A stretch of DNA of 47,415 nucleotides, the filler included, from Jimgerdemannia flammicorona (taxonomy: Eukaryota): assembly GCA_003990765.1 (NCBI GenBank). It is 2 parts of 2 records of this genome, joined end to end, with 100 filler letters (N's around TTAATTAATTAA, not from the genome) between each part and the next. Parts side by side here need not be neighbours in the genome. Positions count along the whole stretch, not along the records: positions 1 to 23,665 come from RBNJ01001082.1; positions 23,766 to 47,415 come from RBNJ01001083.1. One strand, 5' to 3'. A program made the position numbers and the translations under genes. Position 1 is the stretch's first letter. The number at the start of each line of letters is the position of its first letter. The notes under the pieces are model-generated. The model searched no databases. It saw nothing but the letters and a program-made list of their open reading frames with translations, and was not told the DNA's origin. This document shows positions 1,301-34,235 of the stretch, in pieces.

Positions 1301-2452
1301 ATGCGTCGAATTAGAGAACCAAAACAAACAACAACCACAACTTCCAAACACACAAACATGACCACTGAGATCTACAACCGCATCTGCGCTGACATTTGGA
1401 ATGCCATTGTCAACCAAGCCACACCCCCTCTGCCCCTCATGAATATCCATAGCCTAGCACCCCTCTACTTCATGGAAGCCCGATGGAATGCCCTGAACAT
1501 GCTTAGCGAGGCCCACCGAATCAGACAAATCTCAAGCTACTACCAGATCAGCCGCCTCCTAGAAGACATGGTCGAACACCACCATGATACAGATATTACC
1601 CAGATGTCTCAATACCAGAAGCTTATCGCCCACAAACATCGAGAACTCTTCTATGAGTACAACACCTTTATTCCCCGCCTCCAAGTTACTACCAGCGAAA
1701 TGGTTGCTATCCTGTCCTATGGCCAAATCGATGACATGATACAAGAACTCAACCACAAGTACCTCGAGTATGTCGAAACCACAGACAGAACCTTCCTGCA
1801 CCCTGATGACTACATCCTGCAAATGCCTCAAGTCAGATATGCTATGAAGGACGTCTACGATATAATCCACTTCGATGAAGATGAAGCAGAAGACAATGAT
1901 CCCTCTGATGCCGACATGACCTCTAGCCAAGGATCTCTGCCAACCCTGATCACTCCGCCAACCTTGCCGATGAACCTACAATAGTTCATAACTACATACG
2001 AGACTTATTGGGACAATGACCACTGGCACGAATACCAACCCGCGTTCACTCCCGATTACTTCAATTACAATGAAGAGACTGGAGAATACAACCTGTACCT
2101 TCAGACAACCCTCAAGATCGAACCAACCACTCCACCACCCAAGTATGAGCAACATGAACAGCCGCCAGCATACTATAACCCCGCAACTCATAGTGCCATA
2201 ACCTATAGAAGGTATGCAGACAGTAAATCCGATAAAAGCGAAGACAGTACACCCATCCTTCGCCCACCAACACCTTATCCAGCATACGAAACAGACAATG
2301 CTATCCTGTGGGACGGAGATGAAGTCCCAATATATTACTACCTCAGCCAACAAGGAGAAGTAATCCGTGAACCACTCTTCCTAGATGACTACTTTATCAG
2401 AGATGATGCAATCGATGGTGATGTCATTGAAGACTACCCAGATAGTGCCTAA
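1301..2452 (+). CDS. Accessory ORF inside the LTR U3 region, 383 codons with one internal TAG (1982-1984); likely start ATG 1358
   Basis: The track ORF 1301-1984 continues in frame for 155 more sense codons (FITTYETYWDNDHW...PPPKY...PPAYY...DYPDSA) to TAA 2450-2452. The TAG is explicable as CAG>TAG. Confidence 0.7.
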
Positions 2453-2641
2453 ACCCATAAATAGCCTAGCAGTTATAGTATACTTAGATTAGCCTTATAC
2501 GATGTGACTGTGAACTGACTCAGCAGTCAGACGATCCCTTGATATGTCAGATCACACTTGTACTACATGACTGCATTCCGACTCAGCAAAGCACTTAGTG
2601 CTACATCCATATCTAGCCTAGTCCAGATAGCCCCTCACTAG

Positions 2642-2649
2642 TATAAATA
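2642..2649 (+). promoter_or_regulatory. LTR TATA box
   Basis: TATAAATA followed by a C-rich run, about 125 bp upstream of AATAAA. Confidence 0.6.
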
Positions 2650-3130
2650 CCCCCTCCCCCAGACCTCAGAATCTCAGACTTGAACAATCCGAACACAACT
2701 CCTGAGCACTTCCCCACAATACTCCTTCACACAATTACTCCTAGTATAGCAATATTATGAATAGCAAATAAACCTATTCCATAACCCACAAACCACTTTT
2801 AAGTAAATCTGCTCCCTGTTAGGTCCTACTCCTAACCCCATCATGAAATTTCCTAATTGGGTATTGTCTGCAGCGATATGCCAATTCAACTAAGCTGGTC
2901 TTAGTTTCTTGAACTTCCTGAAACACGGAAAATCCTGAACATCCAGAACTAGTCCAGAAAAGGACTTTGGTTGAGACGTCAACCCGATCTTGAAATCAAT
3001 AAGCATAGAGGACGTACTCCATATGAAATTGATCTTGACCATAAGAAAACGGTCTTCCAGAATATCCAGAACTTCCAGAAAACCCTTCTAGAACTACATA
3101 ACGGTTACCCTAAAAAGTAACCCTCTTACA

Positions 3131-3334
3131 GTACTGGTGGGGGATATCAAAAATGATTAGTAGAGACTATCTATAGGAAGAGTGGGAAGAAGATTGGAGT
3201 AGCAGAAAAGTTAACAGTATTTTGGAAAAATAGTGAGAGAGAGAGGGAGTTTCTGAGAGAGATAGGGTGAGGAGCTCATTTGTATTAGTAGTACATTATA
3301 GATAGTTTGATAATAAAGTAGAAGTCTATATAAC

Positions 3335-3366
<32 letters not shown>
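3131..3366 (+). mobile_element. LINE 3'-end fragment with poly(A), interrupted by the chromovirus
   Basis: G-rich sequence ending AATAAA-GTAGA-AGTCTATATAACT-AT-(A)n, matching the tail of the full-length LINE at 38444. Confidence 0.7.
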
Positions 3367-3370
<4 letters not shown>

Positions 3371-6118
3371 AAATTCAGAAAATACTTTTACACTAATGAA
3401 AAATACTCTAACTATCAGTTCCACTAGTTTTAGTATCAGCACCAATGTAAGCTATATATTGAGCAGTACTAATATATATTAAAAAGATCTAACTTATAAA
3501 TTCTAATATAATATAGTATATAATAGTATATTATGAGTAGTTCTCTATATATAAAAAGTTCAAGCACTCTATACCTATCAAAATGAGTAATGTTAGTATA
3601 TATCTATATGGAAATATTAATGAATCCTCAGATATCTTTATAGATATACTATATATATTAGATATAGGTAAGAATCTCTTCTCAATAGACTAGATGATGG
3701 CTCAAGAAGATAAAGGAATAAATATGCATCTGAATAGTATAATGGTAATTAATCTAAAGAATAATAAAGAGCTAATATATATATTCAAAAAGGAAAACCT
3801 ATATATAATTAACAGTATATTAAGTAGTATATCATCTATATATTCTATAATAGTAACTTATATCTAGTATATATAGTATAAATACTTAGGATACATCAGT
3901 AAGATAGATTTAGAATAGATGATAAGGAGTAAATTTATATATAAATTACTAAACTATATACTATCAGATTTCTGCTTTTGTAATAGATACATAGTAAACA
4001 AGGCTTTTTGATAACTTTTTCAAAAATAAATAAAGTAAGTAGCCAGTATTCTCAATATAATATATATGGATATCTGTAGCCTTATGTAAACTATAACATC
4101 CTTTGAGAAGAGGTACTTTATTATCTTCATTGATGATTATACTCATAAAACCTATATATACTTCCTTATAATAAAGAATAAGATATTTAAAAAATTCTGA
4201 GAATTCAAAACAACTATAAAGAATGAAACAGGATGTAAGATATAGACCCTATACTTAGATAATAGTAAGAAATATATTAAAAAAGCCTTTAGAGACTTCT
4301 TGAAGAAGCATAGTATCTAATACTCTATGATAGCTCTCTATATATTTAAATAGAACAGTATAGTAAAATACTTTAACCAAACAATAGTAGAGATGACTTG
4401 AATAATAATAAATATAGCTAGCTTACTATACTTCTTCTAAGCTGAGGTAGTAAATATAGTAGTATATACTTAAAATTGTTATATTTGTTAAGCTTTAAGC
4501 AAGGATTCTGATGAATCTGATAGATTTGACAATAATCAGCAATCCAGAAATAGTAAATTCAGAAATAATAGTGATCTTACTCCTGAAAAATTATAGAGTA
4601 GATCTAAGCCCAATATCTCACACTTATAGATATTTAGAAGTAAGGCTTATATCTTAGATAAGAATAGTAATAGAGACAAACTTGAGTCTAAGATAGATAA
4701 ATATATATTTCTTAAATATGACAGAGTGATATATAGATTGTAGAATCCACAGAAATACTATATAGTTATCACTCATAATATTCAATTCAAAGAGACCAAA
4801 GAATAGAAAATTTATATAGAAATTCCTATCTCTATATTCAATCTGATGGTATAGCTAATAATATATATGCCAACTTCAAAGACATCTCTGATATCTATAT
4901 TAGTGCTAGTGTAATCTATATATATGCTAATGAGACTATTAGACCTAAAAATTATGAAAATTATAGATAAGAATGACAATTAGAATACCTCTCCAAAAGG
5001 TAAGAAAAAGTACAAATCTAGACTATAAAATGAAGTTAAAGCAGATTTAGAAGATTATTGGAACCAGTCTAAGACATTTTGTCACAACAGCAGGTATTAT
5101 AAACTATATCTATAAGTATACCTATATAGTAATAACTGATGAACTAGCAAACTATGATAAAGTCATATACTCAGATAATAAAAAGGAGTAGAAAAAGACT
5201 ATAGATGAGGAGTACAGTTTGCTCATTGAGAATAATATATGTGATCTAGTCTCTCTTTCAGTAAATCAATAAGCTATAGGATTCTACTGAATATATAAAA
5301 TCAAATATAATAGTAATGATAGTATTAGAGTAATATAAGGCTTAACTTGTAGTAAAGGAGTATTCACAAGGATATGGCATAGACTATGATGAGACCTTCT
5401 CTCTAATATTCAAGCTTACTTCACTTAGAATACTTCTTGTAATCAAAGTCAAATATAACTATTAAATCTACCAAATAGATATTAAGACAGTCTTCTTGAA
5501 TAGTAATATAGATATAGAGCTATATGACCATCAACCACAAGGATACAAACTATATAATGATAAGCAAAATAAGCTCATATATAAATTATATAAAGGTCTC
5601 TATAGTATCAAATAAGCAGTAAGGCTATAGAACTGAAAAATCAACAAATACCTCTTGAATAATAGATTTGAGTATTGTGAAGCTAATCTATATATATATA
5701 CCTAGTATATATTCTCAAGAATAGTATATCTAGAAATTTAGATTGATGATATCATTTTGGTTGAAATGACAAATAAGATTAATGATGTAAAAGTGATACT
5801 ATATCAAGAATTCAAGATAATAGATATGTGTAATATATTCTATCTTCTTAGAATATCAATTATACATGATAAGTGTGAACATACTATATATCTATCACAA
5901 GCCACATATATTCAGACTATACTCAAATGATTCAGTTTGAGCAAATATAAGTCTGTTGAAACATCTATAGAGATATCTGTAAGACTAAGAAAGTCTGATA
6001 CATCTAAGAAATTCAATGATATCCCCTATTGGTAAGCTGTGGGATCCCTTATATATCTTATGTTCAGGATGAGATCCAACATATTATATGCAATCAACAA
6101 AGTGGTACAGTACTCATC
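3367..6118 (+). mobile_element. Ty1/Copia pol relic (protease, integrase, RT), heavily mutated
   Basis: Degenerate motifs in Copia order: DILYILDIGKNLFSI (~3645), RYFIIFIDDY (~4110), IDEEYSLLIENN (~5200), YGIDYDETFS (~5375), IDDII (~5742), AVGSLIYL (~6036). Many stop codons. Confidence 0.9.
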
Positions 6119-6134
6119 CTATTGTCATTCTGAT

Positions 6135-7964: not shown

Positions 7965-9651
7965 ATGGGCCATTCTCTATCTAGATTATTCAGATACAAA
8001 GAAGGCCGCCGCAAGGATCCTGTATCTGAGACGCCCAATGTCGAGCCGCCTACCCAAGACTCGCTCGGGAACCAAATTCCCGAAGACTCCAAGGTCATCG
8101 ATGGTCGCATTTTCAAGAAGAATGGGAGCCCCGTTTACCCGCTACCAAACGACAAGTCTGAGTATGGCCGCTTGAACTCCCAGCACTATGTTCTCCGGTG
8201 AGTTTTAATTCTCAACGGCCCATTGCTACATGTTTTGTATTGAAAACACAGCCGTTGAAAGTGCTTTGCGAGTTGGTTGGAACTATAGAAGCGTTGACAT
8301 AAAGACTACAAAAACTGACTGACTTTCACATCCTGAATTAGCTATACCTTCCAGAGGTAAGAATTGATATTTAAACCTTTTGTGTTGTGATAACCATTAT
8401 TTATTCATACAGTGTTAAACACCGATCCTTCTGCTTGTAGTAATTACAAAGCACCTGTCACTGAAGACCTAAAGCGCGGAATAAAAGTTCTTGACGCTGG
8501 GTGAGTTCTTCCATCCCTATCATTTATTCCACCAACAACCATCTCCACAAGTGCTAATAGGAAGCCCTCTGCACCTGTCAGATGCGGCACTGGTATCTGG
8601 TCCGTCGTAAGTACCCTGCCCATTGTCCCGTGCTCATATATCAATTGTTCTGACCGACTGATCCTCCTCCCCTCTCCTCCACCTCGCCTTCAATCACTAC
8701 ACAGGAGCTCGCTAACGAGTTCCCGAACTCGACCTTCATCGGCACCGACATTATCAACGTCTTCGCCGTGTCAGAGAAAACCGCGCCGTCCAACTGCACC
8801 TTTCACGTGGCCGACACGATTGGGCGCCTGCCATTCGACGACAATACGTTCGACTACGTGTTCCAGCGATTCCAGGTCGCGTGTTTTCCAAAAGAAACGT
8901 GGCCTATTGTTCTCAAAGAGCTCATGAGAGTGTGTAAACCCGGGTGTTTTGTTGAGCTGAGTAGGGGTTTTTTTTTTTTTTTCCTATCCGCCTTCTTTTT
9001 CTCTAACAAAGTTTTCTAAATACTCATTCTCACTTTCTCCATGTTTTTAATCCCTGCTATGCGTAGTCGAAATCTCGTTCGCGCAGGACTGCGGCCCGGC
9101 ATTGTCAAAGCATATTGAATGGTGTACGGATTTTTCCTTCTTATTCCGCGTTCCATTGTTACGTCACCCTCATCACACATCGTATTACCTTACCCGCCCA
9201 AAACTTCCTGCAGTGAAAATTCTCTTCTCCCTCCGCGGCGTCGACATAACCATTTTCAAGACCCCGGAGCTCGTCATCAATGCGGGCCTGGTCGACGTCC
9301 AAAGCTCATACATAACCTGGCCGCTCAACTGGGGCCCTGACAAGGGGCTGGGGGAGCTGATAGCACAGGTTTGTACTCCTGTCCCATTGGTTGCTTCCTT
9401 CCTGTGCTATTAAAGACTCATTCTTGTCCTCCTTTCCATAGAATTACATGGCCGCAGTTCACAACTTCCGCGCGCATGTCGACACAGTCCTCGGCATCAG
9501 CGATGATGAGTACGACGAGGTTGAGCGCGGATGTGAGGCCGAGCTGCTCGCTCCTGTCGTCGAATACAAGGCAACCCAACCCATCTTCGATTACTACGGC
9601 CGAAAGCCCTTCCCCGTCGCAGACGACACCCAACCTAAGATACCCTCGTAG
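7965..9651 (+). CDS. Class I SAM-dependent methyltransferase (LaeA-like/Methyltransf_23-25 type), 8 exons, 336 aa
   Basis: Exons 7965-8197, 8342-8356, 8441-8500, 8582-8606, 8705-8960, 9067-9123, 9214-9368, 9442-9651, all with GT-AG introns, total 1011 nt in frame. Motifs YPLPNDKSEYGRLNSQHY, KVLDAGCGTGIW, LPFDDNTFDYVFQR, ELMRVCKPG. Confidence 0.9.
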
Positions 9652-10124: not shown

Positions 10125-10890
10125 ATACATTGTGGCGTGCGATTTGCATCTATTTTTTGCTTCAAGCACGGCTCATGTGCCACTTGTAGAAGTCTTAACA
10201 CTTGATCTCCTGGTCTGGTAGCGGTATATGTCATTGTTCACGTCGTTGGTCACGTGACTAGATCGTTCGTTATATCGTTCGTCGTTTTTGAGGGTCGTAT
10301 CTTGCAATTCTTGTTTTCTTATACTCGGTCTTTGGCTGTCTGGTAGCATATTCATGGTCTTGTTCTTGAACTTTGTGGTCTTTTTTTCAATTCATGGAAG
10401 AGAGGTTTGTCTACTCAATCTCTGAGTTTTATGCTCCTTGTTTTCCAGAACCTTTTTAATCTTTCAGAGTCTTTGATTAACTTTCAAGTGAACTGAGGTT
10501 TATTCACTCTTAGTTACTGGTTTTATTTACACAAATTGTACTAAGTTATAGTGTGAGAGAATTCACTAAGTTAAGTTAACTAATAGAGATAAGAACAAAG
10601 TTATTACTAGTAATAGTTTAATAATGGTAAGTTAATAAAAGTAAAGCTAATACTAATAAGAATAAGGTTGTTGCACTAGTCCAGAGCCAATAGCAAAGTA
10701 AAAACTAACTAAATAAGTATAAGGCTGAGATAATTATGGAATCAAGTTAAGCTAAATATATTTAAATTATTATACTTAATAAATAAAACTATTAAAGCTA
10801 AATTATATTATATATGTAAAATTAGTTATAACTGATGAGTAGTAAGGATGAGCTATTGGCTCACTAAATACAAATTAAAAATATTGATAA
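10125..10890 (-). repeat. Dispersed repeat, probable solo-LTR relic, homologous to 32418-33150
   Basis: Colinear with 32418-33150 by eye. Carries the reverse complement of the LTR poly(A) box AAGAGTGAATAAACCTCAGT at 10492-10511. Boundaries approximate. Confidence 0.65.
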
Positions 10891-11962
10891 AGATAATGTA
10901 ATCTTTAATTAATATAGTATTCTTTATTAAAAATAATAAGTATAATATCAAAATCTATAAATTTATCTAATTATTCTTCAAAATATAAGAATAATAATTA
11001 AGTAATAAAAAGACAGTATTTTGATTGATTATTTTTATAGTTTAAAGACAGAGATATAATTATTCTTAGCAGTATTATCTAAAAGCTCTTTTTTTAATAT
11101 TGGAGAAATTTCAGAATCATCTTAAAGTAATTTTAAATATTTAAAATAAATAATTATTCTTAATTAGTTTTTTTTTTTTTAGATATTTTCAATAATATAA
11201 TATAATTTAAATTATATAAGTATAATCTAGGAGTAGTGCTCTAATTAAGTTAGGGAAATTTAAATCTGATTTAAATTTGTCAACTATATAACTAATTTAA
11301 ACTAATTCAAATTTATTATATAATAAATTTGAATTAATTCAAATTGAACCAACTCAAATTCACTCTGTAAGCTGGAATTCTCATATAACAAACTGAATTA
11401 AAAGTCAACTAGTAGATAAGTCTGCTAAAAAGAGCAATTTTTTAGAGAAAAAAAGGATACTACTTCTGCTGAACTTTATAGAATAAGAAAAACTTCTATT
11501 AAATATTTAAAAATATAATATAATATAAAAACCAATTATCAAATATACAAAATATTTATAGATTTTTTTACTCTCTTAAGTTTTCAAAAATAAAATCATC
11601 AAGAGAAAAGTCAGATATAATATATAACTGTTGTAAATAGAGGCATTTTTACTTAAGTTATATAAGTTATATATTTCATATATTACTGATAAATGATGTA
11701 AAACTGATAGAATGGCATTAGTCACATATTGATATATTAAGTTATAATCTCAATACTCTCACTCAATAAGATATGGAATCCAAAAAAAATGCAAACTAGA
11801 GTAAAAAGTAATATAATATATATAAAAACTAGAACTATATAACCCAATATCTAAGAATTTTTCACAAATCAAAAAGTATTCCAAAATATATCTAAAAAAT
11901 AACATATATATATAATCTATATAATCTACTTATAGATGAGAGATGTAATCAATATAGTATTA

Positions 11963-14176
11963 TGTAGTAGGTACAAAGTTCTCCAAGTATATCAGATTCT
12001 CTTCAAGATGTATCTCTTAGACCAACTATAAGTTTCTTATAAGTAAGTTCTATTAGAGTACCTTCCCAATGTCTTATAGTTCTCAAACTTCTTATTTTTA
12101 AACTATTCTGTTGTCTTCTGGATTTATTTGCTTAGAATTGAGTAGAGGACTAGAACTTCTGTGCTTCTTAAGTAGTTGAGTGTTTTGAATACTTGACTAC
12201 TTAATTACTTACTTTATTTCAAAAGAAATGAGAGAGGTATTTATATAAAATATAACTAAGTTATAAAACTAAATATAAATTTCAATAACTAAATAAATGA
12301 GATACTTGAATATAAAAAACTTCAGATTATAAGTACAAATTTGAGTATCTATATAAATAGTTACACAAGATCAGAATGCTAGAATTTTTGATAATTATAT
12401 AGGATCAGAATGCCAGAAAAATTACAGTTATATAAAGAACTCAGAGCAGAATGTTCAGAACTCTGAAGACTTTATTTTTATTACTACTAGAGGTTGGAGA
12501 TAGGATGTCTTCAAAGGAAATGAGATCAGTGAATATTTTGTCCATTTTGCATATATTATGCATTTTTCATACTTCATGTATATTACTAATTAGCAGAATG
12601 ATATCATTATGGATGACATCATTATGTTCAGTAGTGGCAAGAAGAGCAAGGAGATCAGAGGCTCTCTAATCTATAAGATTCTCCTCTATAAAGTAGAGAA
12701 TAAAGGTAGGATCTTGAGGGGGCCTAATCTAGATACTAAGATCTTAGAATACTGAGATTAATTCTTGCAGAAATTGATCAGAATTGTCCTCAAGGATGGA
12801 ATTCCAGAACTCTCCTATCTCATCACTTTTGAGAGTAATAGTAGATTGGGCTTCTGTGGACACTATGACCTCTAGTATATCTGTATAGTAGGCTAATAAT
12901 TCCTTGAAGTCTGAGACCCTGATATACTCTAAGTTGAGAATTGACCAAGGTGTATATCTGAAAATCTGATGGATCTTTTTGGCTATCCTCAATTTATATA
13001 CATCTATAGAAGTAGTATCTTGTATTTCTTAGAGACTGGCCTGAGAAAATTTCTAGTAGAGGAGGTTTTCTATTTCATATTTCTGCTATATTCGGAGATA
13101 TTCAGTAGTGATAGTGATCCTTGTTTCTATTTTACAGTAGTTGAGAATAAAGTGGTAAAGGTCACTAGTATCTAAGTTGAGGCTAGAAGTCCTTCTTATA
13201 TGGATCCTTATAGCTCTTCTGATATCTTAGAATATTCTTTCTTGAACTGAGAATCCTTTATAGTTCCTAGATCTTGAGGCTTGGTAGACAGCAGGTATTT
13301 TGTTTATAGTAAGTCTTTAAGCTATTTTAGAGTTTTGTGAGTCTTGTTTAAGTTACTACTATTATAGTTCCTTAGTTCTTCTTTTATATTTCTTGAGATG
13401 TCTATCTTATGGTCATGATGACTCATAGTTGGTCATCATTACTCATCTTGTAGTCTGGGTAAGTTATGTTATATAATCTTCTTATGCTCTGATATGGTGG
13501 CTTATAAGAAAAGACTGTCTTCTGTAATAATATCACTATTCTGAGATTACTGTTACATCTTTCTCCTGAATAAGAATATTTTCTTAAACATTCTTATTCA
13601 TTGGTCCAGTCTGAAAAATTTGCTAATCCTATAACCTTTAGCAGGGGGTCAAAAAGTAGAGTTTATAGGCTGATATCTTCTTTATATATTTTGGTATAAT
13701 AGTGAAGAATTGCTCTCTTTATATAGAGCAAGGGCCTGATTCTAATCTTGATTAATCAGTTGATGGTTCAAACTTCTCTGACTTCAAAAGTCTCATGATT
13801 AAGTAGTTGCTGGTACTATATCTCTTATAGAATGGTCCAGACAGATTATCTGCTAGTTACAGAATATACTATTATGATTCATGGACTAGAACCTCATGAG
13901 TGGTCATTATATTTTGCTTCTCTTATATAGATTCATAATACTTCTTGAGTTTATCCCTATATACTATGATAGGTAGTATAGTCTTTGAGAGTTTTCTAAG
14001 CCAGAAGGTAGTTCTTTTGATACATATCTTGTATATAGAAGAGTTCTTCTCATTTGGGCTCCAGTTTTCATAACTATGAGACTTCTACTATATTTCAATA
14101 TAGTAGAACCTTTTCTCTAATTTAAATGAATTTTAGAGTCTTGTGATCCTTTTCTGTATTTTTTCTTATTAGTACT
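11963..14176 (-). mobile_element. Ty3/Gypsy element B, 3' part (integrase C-terminus, accessory ORF, PPT, 3' LTR ~11963-12675), cut by element A
   Basis: Minus-strand EKVLLY...KLEPK integrase tail at ~14050-14120. PPT-like AGAGGAGAA at ~12679-12687. LTR ends TGTAG / CTATA (read as decayed CTACA). TATA at ~12240 and short U3 repeats at 12300-12480. Confidence 0.7.
12744..13907 (-). pseudogene. Accessory ORF downstream of integrase in element B
   Basis: C-terminal part reads QKYEIENLL...IDVYKLRIAKKIHQIFRYTPWSILNLEYIRVSDF. An ATG at 13907 is in the same frame, but the N-terminal extent is uncertain. Confidence 0.55.
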
Positions 14177-15050
14177 TGTGACTTAGACTACCAGATAAGA
14201 TATATCTGTACAGGACCTACACACCTGTGTCAGATCTGTATACTTGTACTAGACCTGCACAACTTACTATAAGTAGCAAATCTATAGTTAGCCACATAGC
14301 AACCAGATAGCAACCACAATGTATAAAATACTCCAGAGATAAGAGTGAATAAACCTCAGTCCAAAATACAAATACCAAAGAAGTCTCTAAAGATTGAGCA
14401 TTGGTCCCCTTTTTACTCTGGTCTACTTTCTGATACAAAGCCTTAGTTTGCTTGCCAGATAAGCCTGAAGATTTGCTGCCAAGTTGAAGAAAGAACTTCA
14501 CTACCTTTTGAGTAATCTACCGCTTAAGAAATAAGCCACTATTTCCAAGTTATCCACATTCCCAAAGAACCTAAACCTTGCAACAAGCCAGTCTTCTGAT
14601 ATAACTTCACAGTGATTTATTTGTACAAATGAAGCCAGTCTTTGATGTAACTTTGCCAAGAATCTAAGTTATTACCCAGAACCCTGCTGATTCAGAAAGA
14701 ATCCACACTATCTGAGTTATTAGTTTGTTCCTAGTGAGCCTGATACAGAAGAATCCATACCATTCTCTATTCCCAGTAAGTCACCAATTCAGAAGAATCT
14801 ATACCCAAATCAAGTTATCTATCAAATTGTCAGAATATTATATATAAGGAGATCATTACACTATATAGAGATCACCTATCACTCAAGAAGGAGAACCACT
14901 AAATTGCCAGACCATACTATACCCAAATTGAAACTATACCCAGAGAACTATCCCAATTAGGAAATTGACACATAAATCACTTGCAGATATCCAGTTTTGA
15001 CTATTATACCACTAAATACCAAGAATATTTTGTTGCTTTTAATAAAGTAA
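14177..15050 (+). repeat. 5' LTR of element A
   Basis: Begins TGTGA. Colinear with 22704-23665. Exact 3' end uncertain. Confidence 0.85.
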
Positions 15051-15051
15051 C

Positions 15052-15060
15052 TGGGGGCTC
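15052..15060 (+). other. Primer-binding site, tRNA-Pro-like
   Basis: TGGGGGCTC immediately after the LTR, identical to the first 9 nt of the classical tRNA-Pro PBS. Confidence 0.55.
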
Positions 15061-15093
15061 AAGCCAAACTACATCAACCTCTAATAAATCAAT

Positions 15094-18000: not shown

Positions 18001-21000
18001 AAGAAGGACCCAGCATAATTCCCATTATTCCTAAGAAAGAAACTCACCAAGAAAAGATATTTTGGTTAGGAAGATATCTATACCAAATGGTCTTCCACTC
18101 TCCCTGAGACTACTGCTATCAATATTATTTATTAGACCAGCAAGATAGACAGAGACCCCAAAGACCAGAACCCCCAACTATAGTTGCACAGTCAACTACC
18201 TTCCAAGAAGTTACCACTAGGTTGCAAAGCTGATTTAGAGGATAAGGTCTCTTTACTCAAACAGAAGTATACCCATTGTCCACTCTTCCCCCAACTTATG
18301 ATCAAGATGAATACTGATTCCCAAGACAACAAGAAATCAACAACCAGGAATACTATTTCCAAGTAATAGAATATTATAACCATAGAAGACATCCTGACTA
18401 CTGAGACTGCAGACATCAGAAGATTTACCTCTGTCATGATGTTGCAATCCATACCTTGAAGAGAGGAGATAACAGAGGTCAGATTTGAAAAAGTCAAACC
18501 AAGAAGCCAGGAAGAAGGACCCTCAAGATCTATAATTTAGGAGAAGACATCCTAGCTTTTATCACATATGTAACCCACTAAGAATGGGTATAGGATGCCA
18601 CCAACTTCATAGAAGCCCTAGACCCTATAGGAAGAAGAGGGATCAACTATCTCTGAGACCCTTCTACTGGAGCCAGATGGCCACACCTCAACCTCAGAGC
18701 CTGGAGGCTCTCTATTAGTGGAGCCTTAGCCCTAGAATAGTCTGAACTTAGCAAGAATATTGCCCAGTATGCCCTGCTACATCCAAAGGCCAAACTTCCA
18801 ACCAAAGCTCACCCAGAAGATATAGGATATGTTCTTTACAGTCTAGAGAAAGAATCTATCAAGCCTGGAAAAATATTCATAATCAGAACCAGACTAGTCA
18901 TGCAGCTACTCCAAGGAGCTTATATCCAACTGACCTCAAGATCTGGACTTACCAGACAAGAAATAACTATGGAAGGAGGAACCATTGACCCAGAATATAT
19001 AGGTGAAATCAAGGTTATTCTACACAACAGTAGTACAGAATAGCACTAAATCATTAGAGGACAGAAGATTGCCCAAGCAGTCTTCATGAAGGTCAAGACT
19101 CTGCAATTATAAGAAGTCTCTAAACTGACTGAAGGAACAAGACAAGCCAAAGGATTTGGAAGTTCAGATAAGAAGGAAGTACATCTCCTTCAAGTCAACC
19201 ATCTCAAGAGGAATATCCCCCAGCAAGTATACCACCAACTAGCAAACTGCATAAGAATCTCATTCTGGAGCCTGGAGAACAAACCACCTTTGAAATCTTT
19301 GTACCACCTGATTTCAGAAATCTTTTCTTTGAACTCAATGAAGATATCCCACACCTGGATATAAAAGGACACACATTCTCTGATAAGATAAATCTGGTAT
19401 ATTCCTGAGCAATCAACCAAAGTTGGGAAACCATCATCTTATCAAAAGGAACCATCATAGGACATCTGGTGCCCTTTCTCAACCAAACTCATAGAGAAGT
19501 TTATGAACTAAACTTCTTGGGAAACAGCAAAAGATCCCAGAAGAAAGGAAAGACCCCTCTGTGATCCAGGAGACAGTGAAGCCTTCCACCAACATTGGAG
19601 AGAAATTGACACCCCAATAACAGCAACAACTAGTTGAACTTCTCAACAAATATCAAGATATCTTCACTACCAATTATGACAACCTGCCATACAATCCATC
19701 ATATCACCATAGCATAAATACAGGAAATACAACACCCATCCAGCAGAAATCCTATAGAATACCCCATCATTTAAAAACATTCGAAAAGGAGTACATTCAA
19801 GAACTCTTAGACAATGGAGTTATTTGACCCTCTACTAGCCCCTGGGTCAGCCCTATACTCATTGTACCAAAGAAAGGAGAATGGAGACTCTGTGTAGATT
19901 ATAGGAAACTCAATTTAGTTACTGAAAAGGATGCCTATCCTTTGCCCAGAATTGATGACCTTTTGGATCAGTCACAAGATGCCAGATACTTCAGCAGTAT
20001 GGACCTTTTCACAGGATTCCATAAGATCTTCATGGACCCCAAAGACATTCAAAAGACAGCCTTTCTTGCTCTAGAAAAACTATTTGAATACCTTCAAATG
20101 CCCTTTGGACTTTGCAATGCACTCCCCATCTTTCAGAGGATGATAAATTCAGTCTATGCCCCCTTGATCCACCACTGTCTGATTGTATATATGGACAATT
20201 CCAACATCTATTCAGCAAATTTCAAAGAATACCTGCACCATCTCAAAGAATTCTTCAAGCTCACCCACAAGTATCACTTGAGACTCAATACAAAGAAATA
20301 CTACTTCAGGAAACAGAAACTTGAATTTCTTAGATTTATAGTTTCAAAAGAAAGAACTCATACAGACTCAAAGAAAACCAAGAAGATCAACAATTGGCCA
20401 GTACCCAAGGCCCCAAAGGAAACACTATCATTTCTGATGCTAGTATCCTACTACAGAAGGTTTATCAAGAACTTTGCCCAAATCACTACCCCAATCTGAG
20501 TTCTTCTCAAGAAAGGAGTACCTTACAAATGGACAGAATTACAAGAAAAAGTCTTCAAAGAACTCAAGAACTACATAACCACAGTACTAATCCTTATGCA
20601 CCCCAATCTATGAAAGCCATTTATCTTATATACAGATGCTTTCAAAGATGGCCTAGGAGCAGTTCTAGCCCAAGAAGGACCTGACCAATAGTACTATGTG
20701 ATAGCTTATACAAGCTGAGCTATCAATCAGCAACAGATAAACTATGGTAGTATCAAACTAGAATGCCTTGCAGTCATATGGGTGGTCACTCTGTTCAAGT
20801 ATTACCTTATTGAAAAAAGATTCACCCTGATCACAACCATATAGCCCTCAAATGGCTATTCAACTGCAAGAAACCCTCTGGAATCCTAGCCTACTGGATC
20901 CTTATCCTCTAGAATTACAAAATTACCATTATCTACAAAGTAGGGAAAGCTCATAATAATGTTGATATACTTTTCCACCAGCCCTAATGAATTAGAAGAA

Positions 21001-22030
21001 GGGTGTTCCAAGGAACTACACTCTAAAGGAAGCTCCTCAGACCATTAAGGCACAAGAAGATCTCATCTAAAAGAAACATCAGAAAGCCCACCAAGGACAA
21101 GCAAATATAGAAAAAAAGTTGTGAACAACATACCAACATTGACTCAATCTCAGAACACAAGTCCAGGACATACTCAAGAAATGTGACATCTGTCAGAAGT
21201 ACCAAGGAAAAAAAAACTACCAAGCACTACTACAACCAATCACACCACTAGACAACATCTTTCAGAGATGGAGAGTAGACATAATTGGACCTCTACCAGT
21301 TATACCAAGAAGAAACAAATACATTCTTATATTTGTGAAACACCTGACTAAGTGGCCCAAGGCTTTTCTAATGAAAATTGCAGATACCTTAACCATCATA
21401 GGCCTTCTCTATAAACTCACACTCAGATATGGACTCTTAGAAGAACTTATCTCTGACTGAGGCACAGAATTCATCAATAACATAATCACAAGTTATGCTC
21501 AAATTTACAAGATCTACCTCAAACAGACCACATTATATTACCCTTAGACCAATGATATGACAGAAAGAATCATTAAGAAAAGACTTGTCTGAGTTAATCC
21601 TACCAACTGAAATCTCTGCTTACCTGAGATTCTATGGAAAATTCAGAACACTCCTACTACTTCCATCAAACAAAAGCTATTCAAAATGATGTTTGCCAAG
21701 AAAACCAGAACTACTGATCATGAGAATCTTGGAGACCTCCTCAAGAAGGCAGAACAGTTATATAATCAGGCCTGAGTTCAGATTATCAAAGCCCAAGAAA
21801 GACAAAAGAAGTACTATTATCAGAAACAGAAGGACCAGAAGATCAAGATTGGAGATCAAGTACTAGTTTGGAGAAGTATGATTAAAACAAACTTTACTGC
21901 CAAATTGGAGCCCAAATGGCAAGGACCTTATCTTGTACACAACATCAGAGGAACCAGTATCTATTTAAGAGGTATGGATAGATGAACCCTGAGGACACCA
22001 GTATATATCAATTGCCTTAAGATATACCTT
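15094..22030 (+). pseudogene. Element A gag-pol, multiply disrupted
   Basis: gag LPIFAGYPEEDPREFF (15630); decayed zinc knuckle CFHYG*FGPY (~16470); protease IDIGVA and DMILGTNW (17168-17400); RT WRLCVDYRKLN, PLPRIDDLL, YMDN; RNaseH YTDA; integrase CDICQ, VDIIGPLP, KLEPKWQGPY. Confidence 0.93.
18768..19169 (+). pseudogene. dUTPase domain within element A pol
   Basis: All five motifs recognisable: LPTKAHPEDIGY, SRSGL, GGTIDPEYIGEIKV, KIAQ, RQAKGFGSS. Confidence 0.9.
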
Positions 22031-22040
22031 TCCCCATATC

Positions 22041-22544
22041 ATAAATCAGAGAGTTGACAACTGCCTTCAGACTCTTGTCCTCAGCTCATTTCAATTACTG
22101 CCAGTTCCTCTACCCCAATTCTGAGAAGTCAATGAGAACACTCTCTAGAGAATTAAGATTCATCAAGAGAATCTTGTCCTGACCAGACAATTATTACAGG
22201 TCCATCAACTTCAGGCCCACTATGTAATTGGAGAACAATTGCAGAACCTCTCAGTCCCAGAACAAACATATATCAGAAATACTACAGGACTATCAAGGAG
22301 AGATGTCACTGCTGCAGACAAGCTCTACACCCTTTATAAATAAAACCCTGCAGCTCTGATATAAGTACAATTCTCCTGGTATGATACATGAGGAATGAAC
22401 CTAGCCACCTACATGAGTATTATTAATGCTATCGAAATCCTGTTCCCAGAAGAAGAAGAAGAACTCCTGGAATAGAGTAACTATGGTACAGATAATAAAG
22501 ATGATGGAATGGATATTAATACAGAAGATGCCTATTCACACTAA
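22041..22544 (+). pseudogene. Accessory ORF3 of element A (~167 aa)
   Basis: Single frame from ATA (probable ATG>ATA) to TAA: ...QAHYVIGEQL...TGLSRRDVTAADKLYTLYK...EEEEE. The internal stops are all of deamination type. Confidence 0.6.
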
Positions 22545-22596
22545 GGTGATGACTAAAGAACAGTCTGAGGACAGACCATCCTTTAGTAGGGGCTGA

Positions 22597-23665
22597 TGTG
22601 ATATATCAAAACATACCACTTGAATTATAACTCAGATGATATAAATATATAGCATAGTAACCAGACATAGCAACCATTGCTGTAGAAAACTATATAAATA
22701 GCCAGACTATCAGATAAGATATAACTGTACAGGATCTGTACACCTGTGCTGGACCTGTACATTTGTGGACCTGCATAACTTATCATAAGTAGCAAATCTA
22801 TAGTTAGCCACATAGCAACCAGATAGCAACCACAATGTGTAAAACACCCCAGAGATAAGAGTGAATAAACCTCAGTCTGAAATACAAACAATAAAGAAAC
22901 CTCTAAAGATTGAGCATTGGTCTCCTTTTCACTCTGGTCCACTTTCTAATACAAAGTCTTAGTTTGCTTGTCAGATAAGCCTGAAGATTTGCTGCTAAGT
23001 TCAAGAAAGAACTTTGTCACCTTTTGAGTAATCCACCACTTAAGGAATAAGTTACCATTTCCAAGTTATCTGTATTCCCAGAGAACCCAAACCTTGCCAC
23101 AAGCTAGTCTCTTGATACAACTTTGCAGTGATTCATTTGCACAAATGAAGCCAGTCTTTGATATAACTTTGCCAAGAATCTGAGTTATTACCCAGAACTC
23201 TGCTGATTCAGGAAGAATCCACACCATCTGAGTTATTAGTTTGTTCTCAGTGAGCCTGATACAGAATAATCTACTGCCAGTATTATTCTTAGTAAGAGGA
23301 ATCCATGCCATTCTCTATTCTCAGTAAGCTGCTAATTTAGGAGAATCTGCACCCAAATTGAGTTATCTGCCAAATTGCCAGAATATTATATATAACATGA
23401 TCATTATACTATACAGAGATCATCTGTCACTCAAGAAGGAAAACCACTAAATTATCAGACTATTACTCACAGAGATTACTATACTATATAAGATTATCAT
23501 GCAGAAAATCACATAAGAAGAACCACTAAATTGCCAGACCATACTACATCCAAATTATCACTATATCCAGAGAACCATCCCAATTAGGATATTGATACAC
23601 AAATTGCTCACAGATATCCAGTTTTGACTATTATATCATTAAACACTAAGAACATTTTATTGCTT
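22597..23665 (+). repeat. 3' LTR of element A (truncated by the gap)
   Basis: TGTGA start after the PPT. Colinear with the 5' LTR, with extra internal duplications. Confidence 0.88.
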
Positions 23666-23765
23666 NNNNNNNNNNNNNNNNNNNNNNNNNNNNNNNNNNN
23701 NNNNNNNNNTTAATTAATTAANNNNNNNNNNNNNNNNNNNNNNNNNNNNNNNNNNNNNNNNNNNN
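23666..23765. other. Artificial contig-joining spacer
   Basis: 44 N + TTAATTAATTAA (stops in all six frames) + 44 N, exactly 100 bp. Confidence 0.95.
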
Positions 23766-23872: not shown

Positions 23873-26054
23873 ATGAAGCGATCCAACGAGTACGTGAACC
23901 AAAACCACGCGGATAACATTAAGAAACCGAGATTTGCGCAGGGCTATGGGTATGCATTTTGTGGCATGTTCTACCTTTAAGGACTCATGTGGCACGATTA
24001 AGGCTTAAAATTAGTATCTGAGAGCGTGGTATATCTCTGCCTGCCTGCTTGCACATGTTGACATGTTTTTATGCTCTCGTAAACCACGTATTCATCCAGT
24101 GATATATACGGCCAGTACCCCATGAATCCCGCGGCAGCCGCCATGATGATGAGCAGCCAGTACTCCCAGCAAGCTGGCGGTGGACCGTTCCACCAAGGCA
24201 ATGGCGGCCCTAGTGGCTTTGGCGGCATGTCACAGTACTCTCAAGCGGGTAACCAACCATCCTATGGCGCTCTCACGCAATTCCACCAGCAACAGCAACA
24301 GGCTTCCGTGGCGCAGCAATTTGCCATGAGCAATGCATCCGCCGCGGGGATGGGTTCTCCTTTTGCGGCGGCGTCGTTTGCTAACGCTGGCGGGTTCGCC
24401 GCTGGTGCAGCCGGCGGTCTCAATAATGGTGCCGGTGGTGTCGCGAATCAAACTGGCCGAACTGTCTACATTGGCAACATCCCGCCCGATACCAATGTCT
24501 CCGATATCCTCGACCATGTCAAGTCCGGTCCGATTGAATCTGTTCGCCTCCTTCCTGAAAAAAACTGCGCTTTCCTTGCATTTTTGGACGGTACGTCTGC
24601 CGCGGCATTCCATCAAGACGCCAACTCCAAAAAGCTCATCGTCAATGGCACAGAGCTCAAGGTTGGATGGGGTAAGCCTTCGGCCGTTCCCGCCAACGTG
24701 CAGGTCGCGGTACAGAACGGTGCCTCTCGCAATGTGTTCTTGGGCAATCTCGACGACGGCGTGACAGAGCAATCCTTGCGTGACGACCTTGGCAAATTCG
24801 GCCAGATCGAACAGGTCAAGATCCTCCGAGACAAATCCATCGCGTTTGTTCATTTCCTGTCAATTGCCAACGCCGTCAAGTGCGTTGCCACTCTCCCCAC
24901 GGAGTCGAAGTGGGCTGCCCGTCGTGTGAATTACGGCAAAGATCGTTGCGCATACATCCCCAAGGCCTCTCAACAAGGATCCCTCGGATCCCTCGGTCTT
25001 CTGCCCGGTCAACAGGGCCTCTCCCATAGTCTCGGACCCTCTTCCGCTCAACAGCAATTTAACGCCTTTAACTCCTCTCTTGGAGGATTCGGTTCTGCCT
25101 TCCAAATGCCTTTCAACTCCTTTTCCGTCGACCCTTACACCGGTGCCATGACCGCTTCCGCGTCCATGGACTCCCATAGTGCCAGTTCTGCCGGTATAGG
25201 CTCACCTTACATGCAGCACCAACAGCAGCATCACGTCGGTCTTCCCGGTTCTCTTGCTTCTCTCGCTGCAACGCAAGGTCAACCCCTTCAAGTCTCTACC
25301 GCTTCCATTGCCGGTACCGCCAACCGCACGGTCTATCTCGGAAATATTCATCCGGATACCACCTGCGAAGAGATTTGCAATGTCATTCGAGGCGGCATTC
25401 TACATCATATTCGCTACATGCCCGAGAAGCATATTGCCTTTGTCACGTTTGTCGACCCACTCGCTGCCGCCAACTTTTACCATCAGGCCACCTATCAGGG
25501 CATCCTGATCAAGAACCGTCGTCTCAAAGTTGGCTGGGGCAAACCCTCTGCGCTCCCCTCCGCGGTCCTCGCTGCCGTCCAGACGGGCGCGTCTCGCAAC
25601 GTTTATCTCGGTAACATTGATCCCCACATCACTGAGGACAAACTCCGCGAGGATTTCGCCGAGTATGGCGAGATCGAGTTGGTCAACACACTCAAGGAGA
25701 AGAATTGTGGTTTCGTCAATTTCACGAGCATCTCGTCGGCGATGAAGGCGATTGACGGGATTCGCGCCAAAGAGGAGTACAAGAAATATCGCATCAACTA
25801 TGGCAAGGATCGGTGTGGGAACCCTCCACGCGGACCCAAAACAGGAGGCGGTAGTTCAAATGGAAATCAGGCGCAGGATACGCAGGTCAAGCAAGAGAGG
25901 AGCGGAAGTACCGGAGGAATGGAAGGGACGAACGGTACGAGGTAATTTTTTCCTTTTCCTTTATGAATGCGTTGGGATTGTCATTGTTCATAAAATTATG
26001 TTGCTAATTTCTCAACCTTTCTCTCGTTTACTTTGGCGTGGTTGTAGCATGTGA
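23873..26054 (+). CDS. nrd1: Four-RRM RNA-binding protein, S. pombe Nrd1 / S. cerevisiae Mrn1 family
   Basis: Exon 1 23873-23949 (MKRSNEY...KKPRF) and exon 2 24100-25941, with a probable 7-nt exon 3 26048-26054 (otherwise the stop is at 25945). Duplicated RRM pairs [31 protein letters not shown]. Confidence 0.88.
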
Positions 26055-29167: not shown

Positions 29168-29212
29168 TAACATAGATTGGTAATCGGGTAATAAAGTGGA
29201 AGTCCAAGTGAC

Positions 29213-29249: not shown

Positions 29250-29252
<3 letters not shown>

Positions 29253-29702: not shown

Positions 29703-29774
29703 CGTCGTCCGTTACGTCGTCCGTTACGTCGCCCGCTACGTCGCCCGCTATGTCGTCCGTTATGTCGTCCGTAC
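29703..29774. repeat. 12-bp minisatellite, 6 copies (YGTCGYCCGYTA)
   Basis: Direct reading of the sequence. Confidence 0.9.
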
Positions 29775-30744: not shown

Positions 30745-32417
30745 CCCATACGGACTGGCATCTTTTATTTTGGGCGAATATTTATCGGGAGATTTACCAA
30801 CCATATCGTGTATTGAAAAAGCAAATTTCATTCGTAAAACAATATGACCACCAAAGTGAGGCGGTTGGCACGTTGGGGCCTTCAGGCCTACTGGATGTGC
30901 CTATTATGTATCTTTCTCAATCATGGCTGATGATTAGCAGCATCACAATTGATTTCAAACCGTGAACGGACCATCGGACTACGTCACGTCGCAATAGTAT
31001 CGTCCACGCTCGCTCTTCGGGTAAAACATGCCCGAGTGGAGGACGCAGCGCCATCCAGAAACGATACCACTGAATGGAGATGATGAAGACGGATATAGAT
31101 ATTGTCAACACCCACAAAAAGTATATCCTCTTCGCCGTTAGCAGATTTTTATCCAGATGCTACGCCTTTTTCTAGAATGGATCAACGATATGTTGCCGAG
31201 AGACGGAGGTCCAACCACGGCATACGTTAATAATCTACAACTCAATCTCTTGCGATGATCAGCGCCCTTTCGTAGCCATTCACTTCCTCAAGTGAATCTT
31301 GCACAGGCGCGATAGAGCATGTGAGAAGCAAGCCGCGGCTTCGCTATCAAACTGATTGGAGATTTTTATTTTCCGCGCTTTGCCAATCGACACCCTTATT
31401 GTGAACATCCGAACAGCTGCATCGCAACACCAGCGCAAACCAGCTTATCATGATTTCATGGCGTCGTCTAGAAATACCTCAGATGATGGAAGCGCAAAAT
31501 AACATTGAGTGAGGGTTCAGTGGCCGGGAAGGTGTACTTGCATTCGATGATGTTCAGATGAACGGTCAACGAGAGTGCTCACCTGTCTGAATTGCACAAT
31601 CTTCGCTTTGGCTCACGACTTGCTTGTCCAAGCTAAATGACGATTGTTGGCAAAAACGACAGAACAATCATTATTAAAGGAACAAAGGTTATTGATAGAA
31701 AACGATTATTGACAAAACGTTGATTATTGGTAAAGCAATTGAAGAATGACAATTATTGCAGAATAACAATTATTAATGTCTCGGTTCTATCCTCTTCGGC
31801 AACATACACGACAAATCGAGTATAATAGTATATGCCGATGAAGACAGGACTGGAAGGGACAGAAAATACGTGTCCCTATTTCCCGGAACGTTTTTCGCAC
31901 TTGCTAAGCCTGCTACTTATGGTAGGCAGGTAGCGAGGAGATGTTCCCCTTCGCCGAGCTGCCCAAACCCACCGCATTTATCCACCCATCCGAATTCAGG
32001 AATCATAAAGGTGGAAGGAGTGAAAATCTCAATTTTCTGTAGCGTTAGGCCTTAGCTAAAAATTTAATTGCTAAAAAACAATTTCTTTCACTTTCCATCA
32101 TGTTTTCCATCAGCTATCTACATATATCTCTACTTTACCTTCTTTTATATAATGATTTACTATCTACAAGATCTCACCTCTCTGCATAGTTATAATAATG
32201 ATATCTTTTCTTCTTATTTCTGCTGACTTCTCTCTTCTGAGCTTTTTATCAAACTTAGAAAATTTGATTTTACAGAGCCCATATGATTTCTCACTTTAGT
32301 TTGTTTTATTTCTCAGATTATTTTATTTTAAAATTATATATTTTTTGTTTTTCTTTTTTGTTTTTTTGTTTATTAAAAAAAAATATTTAAAAATTGGATT
32401 TTTATAAATAACTAATA

Positions 32418-33150
32418 TATATATTATAATATACAATCTGATCTCTTGTTGCTTTAAGTATAGCTTAATATACTATTTATAGAAATGCATTCAGTGGTTT
32501 CTATAGAATATATTATTAAAAGATATTTATTATTTATATATTAATAATTATTTGATTTAATTATATCTTATAGATTTTTGATAATTTCTTTTAGTTTTTA
32601 GTAATTTAGTAGTATATTTCTAAGTTTTAATTTCTTTTAATCTTATTTTTAATTTATAGTATATATAAGAGATTTATTACTTAATTTTAAAGCTTTATAC
32701 TTTAGATAGATATATTATTTTTTTAGAATCTTTTCTAATCTCTTAAAGTTTTTAATATTTTACTAATAAACTAACTTAAAAGCAAACTAGACTTAAACTG
32801 AGATTTATTTACTCTAATTACTAGAATTATTTATATAAGTTTGGCTAAACTATTATATAATAAATTTTATAGAGTCAGACTAATTAATAAGAATAAAATT
32901 AAAATTATTATTAGTAATAATTTAATAATAGTAAGTTAATAATAGCAAACCTAATACTAATAAAAATAAGATTATTATACTTATTAAATTATAGTATTAA
33001 GGATAAAAGTTCACTAAATAAATATATATATAAGATTAGAATATTTATAAAATTAAACTATAGACTAAATATAATTAAGCTATTATACTTAGTAAGTAAT
33101 AATAATAAAATTATTAATTAACTAAATATAGATTAGAAATATTTCAAAAA
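32418..33150 (-). repeat. Extremely AT-shifted copy of the 10125-10890 repeat
   Basis: For example TGTGGCGTGCGAT vs TATAATATACAAT, and TTCAAGCACGGCTCA vs TTTAAGTATAGCTTA. Poly(A) box at 32797-32815. Confidence 0.65.
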
Positions 33151-33252
33151 TAATAGTTAATAAAGAGGCCTAGATAAAAAAAAAAAACTTTTATCAAAAG
33201 AAATATATAAGTAAAAATAATCTTATTTATTTATTTTTTGAAAAATATAAAT

Positions 33253-33733
33253 TATAATATAGTAGATGTATAACTGGATAAGTATATCAGATTTTTGTAT
33301 CTTGAAAACTTAACCTTCTTTGACTCTACAGAGTCCTTAAGATATAAGAGTGGGTGAGTTTGAAGTATATCTGCCTGTAAGCTTACTAGTTCCTTTGCTT
33401 TTTCTTTACTTTAAACTATTTCAATCTGAGATTTATTTACTCTAGATACTGAGAATATTTATATAAGTTTACTAGCTATAAAGTGACTAAGTTATGACTA
33501 TATTTCCTATGAGTCACTTTTTGATATCTACAAAATCTTTGATGATTACCAAAACTTTAACATTTGTAAAGTTTTCAATATTTGTGAATACTTTAACATT
33601 TGCTAAAACTTTAACATTTGCAAAATATAACTGCTATTTGTAAGATTATACTATATTTGGGAATCAGATTCAGGTACTATGATCAAATGTCTATTTCTCT
33701 GATTTATGTTCCTAATTTAGATCAATTATTACA
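33253..33733 (-). repeat. 3' LTR of element C (481 bp)
   Basis: Colinear with 45283-46109. Ends ATTACA / ATCACA. Contains ~18-bp AAAACTTTAACATTTGC repeats. Confidence 0.9.
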
Positions 33734-34235
33734 ACTTTTTCTTGAATAAGTAATTTATCCCTGAAGTATCCTATTCACTCAATTCCCAAGCTTTTATGAT
33801 TTATATCTTCTTGTACTATGTGATTTATACCATTATGTTCTCTCAATAGTATCTCTTGATATATCCAAAGTCTTCTGAAGCTACTTCTTGAAAATGAGCT
33901 AGGGATTATTTATTTTTTTTGAATAACTTATATACTCTTTTGGCAATAGTGATTTGAGTATAAGAGAGCTGACATTCTCTGATCCAGTCTTCTTTTCCTA
34001 TCTCTGGCTATGAGTTTAGTAGTTATCCCAACTTAAAGTATTTTTGAAACTCAGTCTGGTTTTGGTAGGCCTTGAAATACAAGATTCATGACAAATATAT
34101 CTGAACAATACTCTAGATACTATCAAAGGATTCTTCTATGATCAGTAGCTCAGTAGTGCATCATTGTCTTTCTATGGCTCATTGTATAGTACTGGTGATC
34201 TTGAGGGCTTTGGTAGTACTTCATTAATTAGTCAT
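33729..34235 (-). pseudogene. Accessory ORF3 of element C (~168 codons)
   Basis: One frame from ATG 34235 through the PPT: FQKYFKLG*LL...LSYTQITIAKRVYKLFKKNK*SLAHFQEVASEDF. Confidence 0.6.

Follow-up and report, generated by a model that had tools for sequence, protein, structure and literature searches.

An accessory gene, probably of an unnamed family, downstream of pol in four Ty3/Gypsy elements of Jimgerdemannia flammicorona

Four Ty3/Gypsy elements and the reading frames downstream of pol

The present study concerns a 47.4-kb window of the Jimgerdemannia flammicorona genome (the whole stretch of DNA that was analysed, from assembly GCA_003990765.1), in which GC-normal and very AT-rich blocks occur in turn, and the open reading frames (ORFs) that lie downstream of pol in its four Ty3/Gypsy long terminal repeat (LTR) retrotransposons, which we call the chromovirus and elements A, B, and C. 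A first-pass annotation made from the sequence had proposed that one accessory protein family is carried 3′ of pol by all four, across chromodomain- and dUTPase-bearing lineages, and this proposal was sustained by the positions of Pfam domains, by hhalign comparisons, and by matches to profiles of the A and C types. We regard it as very probable that a real, homologous, protein-coding accessory gene is present in all four elements. Pfam scans of the window were performed in six frames and run piecewise.

The chromovirus is represented in the window by its 3′ end only. Its pol finishes on the plus strand (2–643) with an SH3-like integrase domain (Pfam SH3_Tf2-1, expectation value (E) 1.1e-16) and a chromodomain (Chromo, E 1.9e-16), the stop codon lying at 641–643, and the accessory ORF starts 714 nt past that stop. 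The ORF encodes a helical N-terminal domain (N-domain), the core shared with the other elements at 1535–1750, and an acidic, Tyr/Pro-rich C-terminal half. Since the database protein P0004 extends through the in-frame TAG at 1982–1984, with Q at that residue, the ORF was taken to occupy 1358–2452 on the plus strand as 364 codons plus stop, interrupted by one in-frame stop. The amino acid string read here by the first-pass annotation was correctly placed, and only the extent of the ORF required revision. Its suggestion that the S of SYYQISRLL is a mutated G was also borne out, P0003 having G at this residue and the contigs of sequencing run X1 having G at position 1550 in 690 of a depth of 918.

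In elements A and C the accessory ORF abuts pol directly. The A-type ORF (22041–22556, plus strand; 171 codons plus stop) contains seven internal stops and reads ATA at 22041, where its relatives start with Met; its start overlaps the end of pol by 17 nt in a different frame, and its end lies ~150 nt ahead of the 3′ LTR. The C-type ORF (33771–34235, minus strand; 154 codons plus stop) contains 13 internal stops, and its ATG at 34235 overlaps the end of pol (stop at 34230–34228) by 8 nt; the opening reads MTN-stop-stop-ST, where the intact relative P0012 begins MANNRST, and the end at 33771 lies ~35 nt ahead of a purine run and the TGTAAT with which the LTR begins. For both elements the strings first noticed were in place, and the extents are those revised here. 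Element B is a fragment, the remainder having been cut off by the LTR of element A. It retains a remnant of the integrase C-terminus on the minus strand (13923–14174; 68% DNA identity to 34232–34469 of element C; pol stop at 13925–13923) and, further downstream, a heavily mutated stretch homologous to the accessory ORF (12741–13259, minus strand), which was recognised by BLASTP to element C and by the A/C-type profile and whose core starts at 13085, on the strand and at the place originally reported.

Homology and coding evidence

Public protein collections contain 15 relatives of the accessory proteins, intact or partial (P0003, P0004, and P0006–P0018), which fall into three types; all of their entries are unnamed or labelled "hypothetical" and come from contigs of 629–3003 nt. 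A phmmer search with the chromovirus ORF gave three matches among 1.84 billion representative proteins (P0003, P0004, and P0005), and the first two of these, P0003 (128 aa, 89% identical) and P0004 (247 aa, 60–65%), are relatives of the chromovirus type. P0005, a protein of 436 residues with six ~72-residue repeats, was judged to be a repeat artefact and was left unused; its match (E 1.5e-6 with query P0002) consisted of six stretches and fell on residues 130–167 of the chromovirus-type ORF (the SYGQIDDMIQELNHKY region), although the match is fairly regular locally. Intact relatives of the element A protein are P0006 (171 aa, 77% identical) and P0007, and a profile search with the joint alignment found 14 proteins among 886 candidates, ten of them new; the A type was enlarged by five members and six represent the C type, such that the A type comprises P0006–P0011 and P0018 and the C type P0012–P0017. 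Members of the A type are 55–88% identical to P0006, and those of the C type 61–79% identical to P0012.

Homology among the accessory genes of elements A, B, and C is, from these sequences, highly likely. BLASTP among the degraded copies in the window joined B with C at E 1.9e-4 (C with the chromovirus at E 0.39 and the other pairs at E of at least 5), an element A profile matched C at E 0.004, and in leave-one-out comparisons of the window copies a profile of A and B recovered C at E 1e-5 and a profile of B and C recovered A at E 6.5e-4. Among intact proteins, hhalign aligned the A type with the C type at E 3.8e-5 (probability 71%).

That the chromovirus type is homologous with these three is also likely on sequence comparison, if a shade less so, and a number of results weigh against it. 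BLASTP between P0003 and P0006 gave no match; the first, shallow hhalign comparison (A1 vs A2) returned a probability of 0.1%; and single types met the chromovirus type at E 0.0055 over 19 columns (A type) and E 0.026 over 52 columns (C type). An A+C profile made from window copies missed both B (E 1.2) and the chromovirus ORF (E 1.2), and a chromovirus-only profile applied to the window copies gave the C core at E 3.8 and B at E 20, neither of which is significant, and did not recover A in register. The hhalign probabilities are low throughout as a consequence of shallow profiles, reaching 25% at best for the chromovirus type. The idea of a common family moreover came from inspecting the sequence, and selection bias has to be reckoned with. 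These results would suit an alternative in which only A, B, and C, as one dUTPase lineage, share the gene, and in which the chromovirus ORF is unrelated and owes the likeness of its core to chance or to convergence of helical proteins.

We nevertheless consider that alternative improbable in view of a joint A+C profile built from 12 intact database proteins, none of them from the window and none of the chromovirus type. With hhalign this profile aligned to the chromovirus type at E 7.6e-4 over 88 columns (probability 25%), in the register that the first-pass annotation had proposed; similarity between profiles, on which that annotation had staked its claim, was thus found between A and C as well as between A+C and the chromovirus. 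With HMMER it scored 22.4 bits on P0003 from end to end (residues 1–112) and 13.7 bits on the chromovirus ORF of the window, and none of 10,000 composition-preserving shuffles reached either score (maxima 13.0 and 12.3, respectively). In a six-frame search of the window the same profile ranked B, at E 9.5e-4, directly after A and C, followed by the chromovirus ORF at E 0.0028, the best unrelated match standing at E 0.11, and the less mutated P0003 outscored the window copy, as is expected of true kin. Profiles of the window copies point the same way, an A+B+C profile finding the chromovirus ORF as its top non-member at E 0.047 and the real scores being reached by 0–4 of 5,000 shuffles. The gene also occupies an identical place and strand relative to pol, and MAFFT aligned all types collinearly from the start Met through an NR[IL] motif near residue 8 and the core to the acidic end, with a P-x-PLP stretch also lining up between the A type and the chromovirus type. 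The core can be written as Y-[YF]-x-[IL]-G-x-x-L, ~15 residues, and then [LI]-[ST]-x-x-x-x-x-[IA]-A-x-[RK]-x-x-x-L-[FY].

Conserved cis-acting sequence, such as enhancers of the unique 3′ (U3) region or priming or packaging signals, could in principle leave such frames as by-products with no protein being made. Consistent with this, and counting against our reading of the gene, among the 19 runs listed, none on record as RNA contains the stretch (the RNA status of run X17 being a guess), and the database entries are all automatic gene calls on short contigs. The likeness between types is, however, confined to the protein level, blastn finding no match among the ORF regions of A, B, and C, and frames of 130–364 codons remain open in diverged copies, with the start Met kept at the aligned position across all three types. 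The internal stops of the window copies stand opposite R, Q, or W of the relatives in seven of seven cases in element A, 10 of 13 in element C, and one of one in the chromovirus, the other three stops of element C facing N, S/H/P, and N/Q/K. We hold an explanation by cis-acting sequence to be very improbable.

Placement relative to the LTRs and history of the gene

Elements A and C share a layout in which the gene overlaps the end of pol at its start and precedes the polypurine tract, so that it is internal to these elements. In the chromovirus, a candidate polypurine tract of 13 purines, found by inspection of the sequence at 1055–1067 (plus strand), ends one base before the opening TG of a probable 3′ LTR of 2062 bp at 1069–3130 (plus strand); with both the tract and the TG of the LTR upstream of it, the gene would be part of U3 and would be copied into both LTRs. 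The terminal TGTAAG (1069) and CTTACA (ending at 3130) are perfect inverted repeats, and TATAAATA at ~2643 and AATAAA at ~2777 both lie downstream of the ORF. Depth was obtained from short contigs of other samples (runs X1, X3, and X17) fitted to the window. The summed depth of X1 was 126–555 over positions 1–990, 511–1478 over 991–2530, and 1791–3291 over 2531–3080, and was 0 past 3190; that of X3 climbed from 2.6 through 26 to 67 over the bins spanning 881–1210; and that of X17 was zero before 991, the fit of two of its contigs starting at 1069. At the other end, loose contig ends fell at 3128–3132, one of them going on as TGGTAGC, which, judged against tRNA-iMet (initiator methionine tRNA) ends, would resemble a primer-binding site.

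From these termini, depth steps, and loose ends, the chromovirus LTR probably spans 1069–3130 with the accessory ORF inside U3, and the "LTR ORF" label that the first-pass annotation gave to this copy is probably right. Two points tell against the 1069 start. It is based on short contigs of other samples, and X1 shows a depth step from 1232 to 2093 together with one loose end at 2547, which would agree with an LTR beginning near 2545; we hold this the weaker of the two placements. No locus encoding the chromovirus-type protein was confirmed in two scans of metagenome contigs.

If the 1069 start is correct, we infer that the two layouts differ only in the plus-strand priming site, which lies after the ORF in one and before it in the other, and that the order in genomic RNA would be alike in all four elements, namely pol, the ORF, the promoter part of U3, and the repeat region (R). 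Element B shows, on its minus strand at 13567–13552, a purine run (aggagaaaga) followed by TGTAAC, 366 nt downstream of the pol stop and 298 nt upstream of the ORF-like stretch, the equivalent distances in the chromovirus being 425 nt and 289 nt. As a lead only, the gene of element B may also lie inside a long LTR, despite a pol end like that of element C.

At the integrase end, element A shares 42% identity with C and 29% with the chromovirus, and identity between types of the accessory ORF is 11–22%. In both comparisons divergence is greater in the ORF than at the integrase end, and the order of relatedness is identical, with A and C closest; this shared order fits descent together with pol, and the sequences bear no sign of recent exchange. 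Alternatively, each lineage might have acquired the gene by its own capture of a host gene, or one might have received it from the other. The layouts of the two lineages do differ, and capture and sharing of extra third ORFs (ORF3s) among unlike retroelements is described for bdelloid rotifers in PMC5408684. Such a history is unlikely here, given that the three phmmer matches among the representative proteins include no cellular family, that the profile search yielded only short element-like contigs, and that the ORF diverged more than the integrase end did and in the same order.

The remaining parts of element A comprise a 5′ LTR at 14185–15038 (repeat families D1, D4, and D6, with 63 extra matching bases by blastn), an internal region at 15039–22057 (gag, protease, dUTPase, reverse transcriptase (RT), RNase H, and integrase, with the pol stop at 22055–22057), and a 3′ LTR at 22704–23665 (repeat finding and blastn), all on the plus strand. 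Its Pfam matches are gag-asp_proteas, dUTPase, RVT_1, and RT_RNaseH_2, and no Chromo match was obtained for it at E up to 0.001. The 3′ LTR runs directly into two N runs (44 each) at 23666–23765, which we read as an assembly gap, so the end and the flank of this LTR are unreliable there.

Element C, on the minus strand, has its 5′ LTR at 45278–46110 (repeat finding and blastn), its pol at 34228–38600 (dUTPase, RT, RNase H, and integrase by Pfam, with no Chromo match at E up to 0.01), and its 3′ LTR at 33248–33734, which begins TGTAAT and has aagaaaaag in front. A segment of 161 nt inside the 5′ LTR (45530–45690) is repeated at the end of the window (47251–47411) with 99% identity, which suggests that another LTR copy of this family lies just past the window end. 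Within the element, a GC-rich block at 38450–44300 (52–56% GC) has a strong excess of C on the plus strand (GC skew −0.34 to −0.53) and holds several ORFs of 150–370 codons on both strands, for which Pfam returned zero matches; its left edge (38454–38568) is ~71% like the repeat at 45529–45648 and 47251–47369. Just outside the 3′ LTR, positions 32793–33264 are 59–71% like 10491–11004, a stretch ~2 kb downstream of the ORF-like stretch of element B, and the former contains a 50-nt piece of the C-family LTR; either a further fragment of an LTR may be present, or the repeat finder may have drawn the LTRs of B and C too narrowly.

Directly after the chromovirus LTR, the plus strand at 3300–6000 has a GC content of 26%, and its stop-rich translation resembles, by eye, a Ty1/Copia integrase. 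Two apparently intact host genes are placed between the elements, both on the plus strand: one at 24122–25942 encoding 607 residues with three RRM domains (E 3.4e-34) and one at ~8700–9000 with a methyltransferase domain (Methyltransf_25, E 1.6e-8).

The protein, its possible role, and comparable systems

The product is predicted to be a soluble protein with a helical N-domain of ~110–130 residues and an acidic, aromatic end that is long in the A and chromovirus types and short in the C type. The isoelectric point of the A and chromovirus types is 4.4–4.7; the N-domain is close to neutral, and a net charge of −16 to −19 falls on the final 60 residues of the A type. The last residues are EAWEFE in the C type and YWDDD in the A type, and the chromovirus type finishes with an acidic stretch containing F, Y, and I. 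The highest 19-residue Kyte–Doolittle mean was 0.19–1.11 in seven proteins, such that no membrane segment was detected and the protein is not env-like, in agreement with the first reading of the sequence.

Structure prediction likewise agreed with the helical protein that had been expected. AlphaFold2 models of P0006 and P0003, made with family alignments before the deeper alignment, are all-helical, with mean predicted local distance difference test (pLDDT) values of 48 and 45, and an Atlas model of P0006 (pLDDT 0.76) has long helical bundles as its nearest folds, at template modelling (TM) scores of at most 0.37. At AlphaFold pLDDT values of 45–48 no fold can be named, which counts against any firm structural reading. 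The Atlas feature search gave no lead (P0006 at most 0.93, with under 170 shared features; P0002 at best 0.84), and a sequence-profile search of the PDB reached E 0.18–0.21 at best, with unrelated chains. In hmmscan against Pfam at E up to 10, the only matches of the 14 members were to five unrelated families, each found by a single member (best E 0.031), and none was to a GDSL esterase or DEDDy exonuclease family; the view that no named family fits therefore stands, and the likeness to helix-turn-helix domains of the DUF1016_N/DUF3102 kind that had accompanied it was not upheld, with zero of the 14 members matching either family at that threshold and the Atlas TM scores being as low as stated. 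One alignment has A92 invariant and L67 and I78 nearly so; another has H41 and A92 invariant and Q58, G64, L67, P71, I78, and R94 nearly so. In our judgement these residues form no recognisable catalytic motif.

In the genomic RNA the gene would lie in sense orientation between pol and R. It would be expressed through a subgenomic, spliced, or internally started RNA, to which re-initiation at the pol stop would be an alternative in A and C. The protein would work in trans on the cycle of the element that encodes it, as a regulator or adaptor without enzymatic activity. Activators usually have a helical domain for targeting or contact and, after it, an acidic, aromatic tail. By this analogy the likeliest single role, which we put forward tentatively and at well under an even chance, would be to activate transcription from the element's LTR; the helical domain would serve for targeting and the tail for activation. 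Two features weigh against it: the N-domain is not basic, which disfavours nucleic-acid binding, and the acidic end of the C type is only six residues long.

A nearly even chance falls to the alternative that the family is real and that its role is one of structure, assembly, or targeting, the protein being a partner of Gag or integrase, a tether to chromatin or histones, or a suppressor of silencing. A near-neutral helical N-domain suits protein–protein contacts, acidic tails are also known to bind basic proteins, such as histones or nucleocapsid, and no chromodomain was detected in A or C. A suppressor of silencing would pay as a counter-defence in a host that mutates repeats, and 303 of the 324 places at which the X1 contigs differ from the window are transitions. 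The chromovirus, however, carries the gene along with a chromodomain, so the gene is no simple chromodomain substitute, and the C type is without a long acidic tail.

Accessory genes set complex retroviruses apart from simple retrotransposons, and to our knowledge almost none have been described in fungal retrotransposons. The sag gene of mouse mammary tumour virus and the nef gene of lentiviruses lie in or overlap the U3 of the 3′ LTR, and the gene of the chromovirus resembles them as a sense ORF, probably in U3, that comes after the last structural gene and would need a subgenomic or spliced RNA. The present protein, unlike Sag, a type II membrane glycoprotein, and Nef, which is myristoylated, has no membrane segment or Pfam likeness, and its host is not an animal. 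The Tas/Bel1 gene of foamy viruses is a 3′-end gene reaching U3 that encodes a targeting domain and then an acidic activation domain. By analogy it may be the closest candidate in manner of working, sharing the 3′-end position reaching U3 and the order of domains, with no sequence match.

Extra ORFs of LTR retroelements are a known kind, and what we found in the window, a sense ORF between pol and R that is open and conserved in diverged copies, agrees with the general description of such genes; unusual here are the probable U3 layout and the span of two lineages. LTR retrotransposons of bdelloid rotifers have ORF3s that are either env-like or code for a GDSL esterase or DEDDy exonuclease (Rodriguez, Kenefick, and Arkhipova 2017, PMC5408684), and these resemble the present gene as extra ORFs after pol in Gypsy-like elements, some with dUTPase, and as an ORF type common to unlike lineages. 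They differ from it in that the present family has no Pfam match or recognised catalytic motif, a host of another kingdom, and an order of relatedness that follows pol. For some fungal Gypsy elements an "add. ORF" of unknown function is drawn by Novikova et al. (2010, PMC2864245), who also place dUTPase between protease and RT in some families; the likeness to the present family was compared by description only. The ORF0 of the rice elements Retrosat2, RIRE3, and RIRE8 is, according to PMC3485330, lineage-restricted, of unknown function, associated with very long LTRs, faster-evolving than pol, and modelled as an enzyme. The present gene is similar in being a lineage-restricted extra ORF of long-LTR Gypsy elements that evolves faster than pol, and it differs from ORF0, a plant gene upstream of gag-pol, in position and probably in fold. 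The literature searched does not name any ORF3 family in Gypsy elements of fungi; outside that scope, the supplementary table of PMC2864245 may list elements with the "add. ORF" and may bear on this point.

The gene probably belongs, then, to an unnamed accessory gene family of fungal Ty3/Gypsy LTR retrotransposons. A more speculative proposal, to which we give a rather low probability, is that it is a Tas- or Sag-like regulatory gene that activates its own LTR or blunts the repeat defence of the host and whose origin precedes the separation of chromoviruses from the Gypsy elements with dUTPase; it would have come to lie in U3 when the polypurine tract shifted, so that every LTR, solo LTRs included, would carry a copy. 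Pfam-based annotation does not see this family and repeat masking, we assume, probably hides it too, and a profile for the family would better the annotation of fungal elements. A shifted priming site, as the two layouts suggest, would be a simple way for a gene to enter an LTR. A conserved gene that is neither env-like nor enzymatic and is present in two Gypsy lineages would offer a way to study the self-regulation of these elements or their escape from mutation and methylation directed at repeats.

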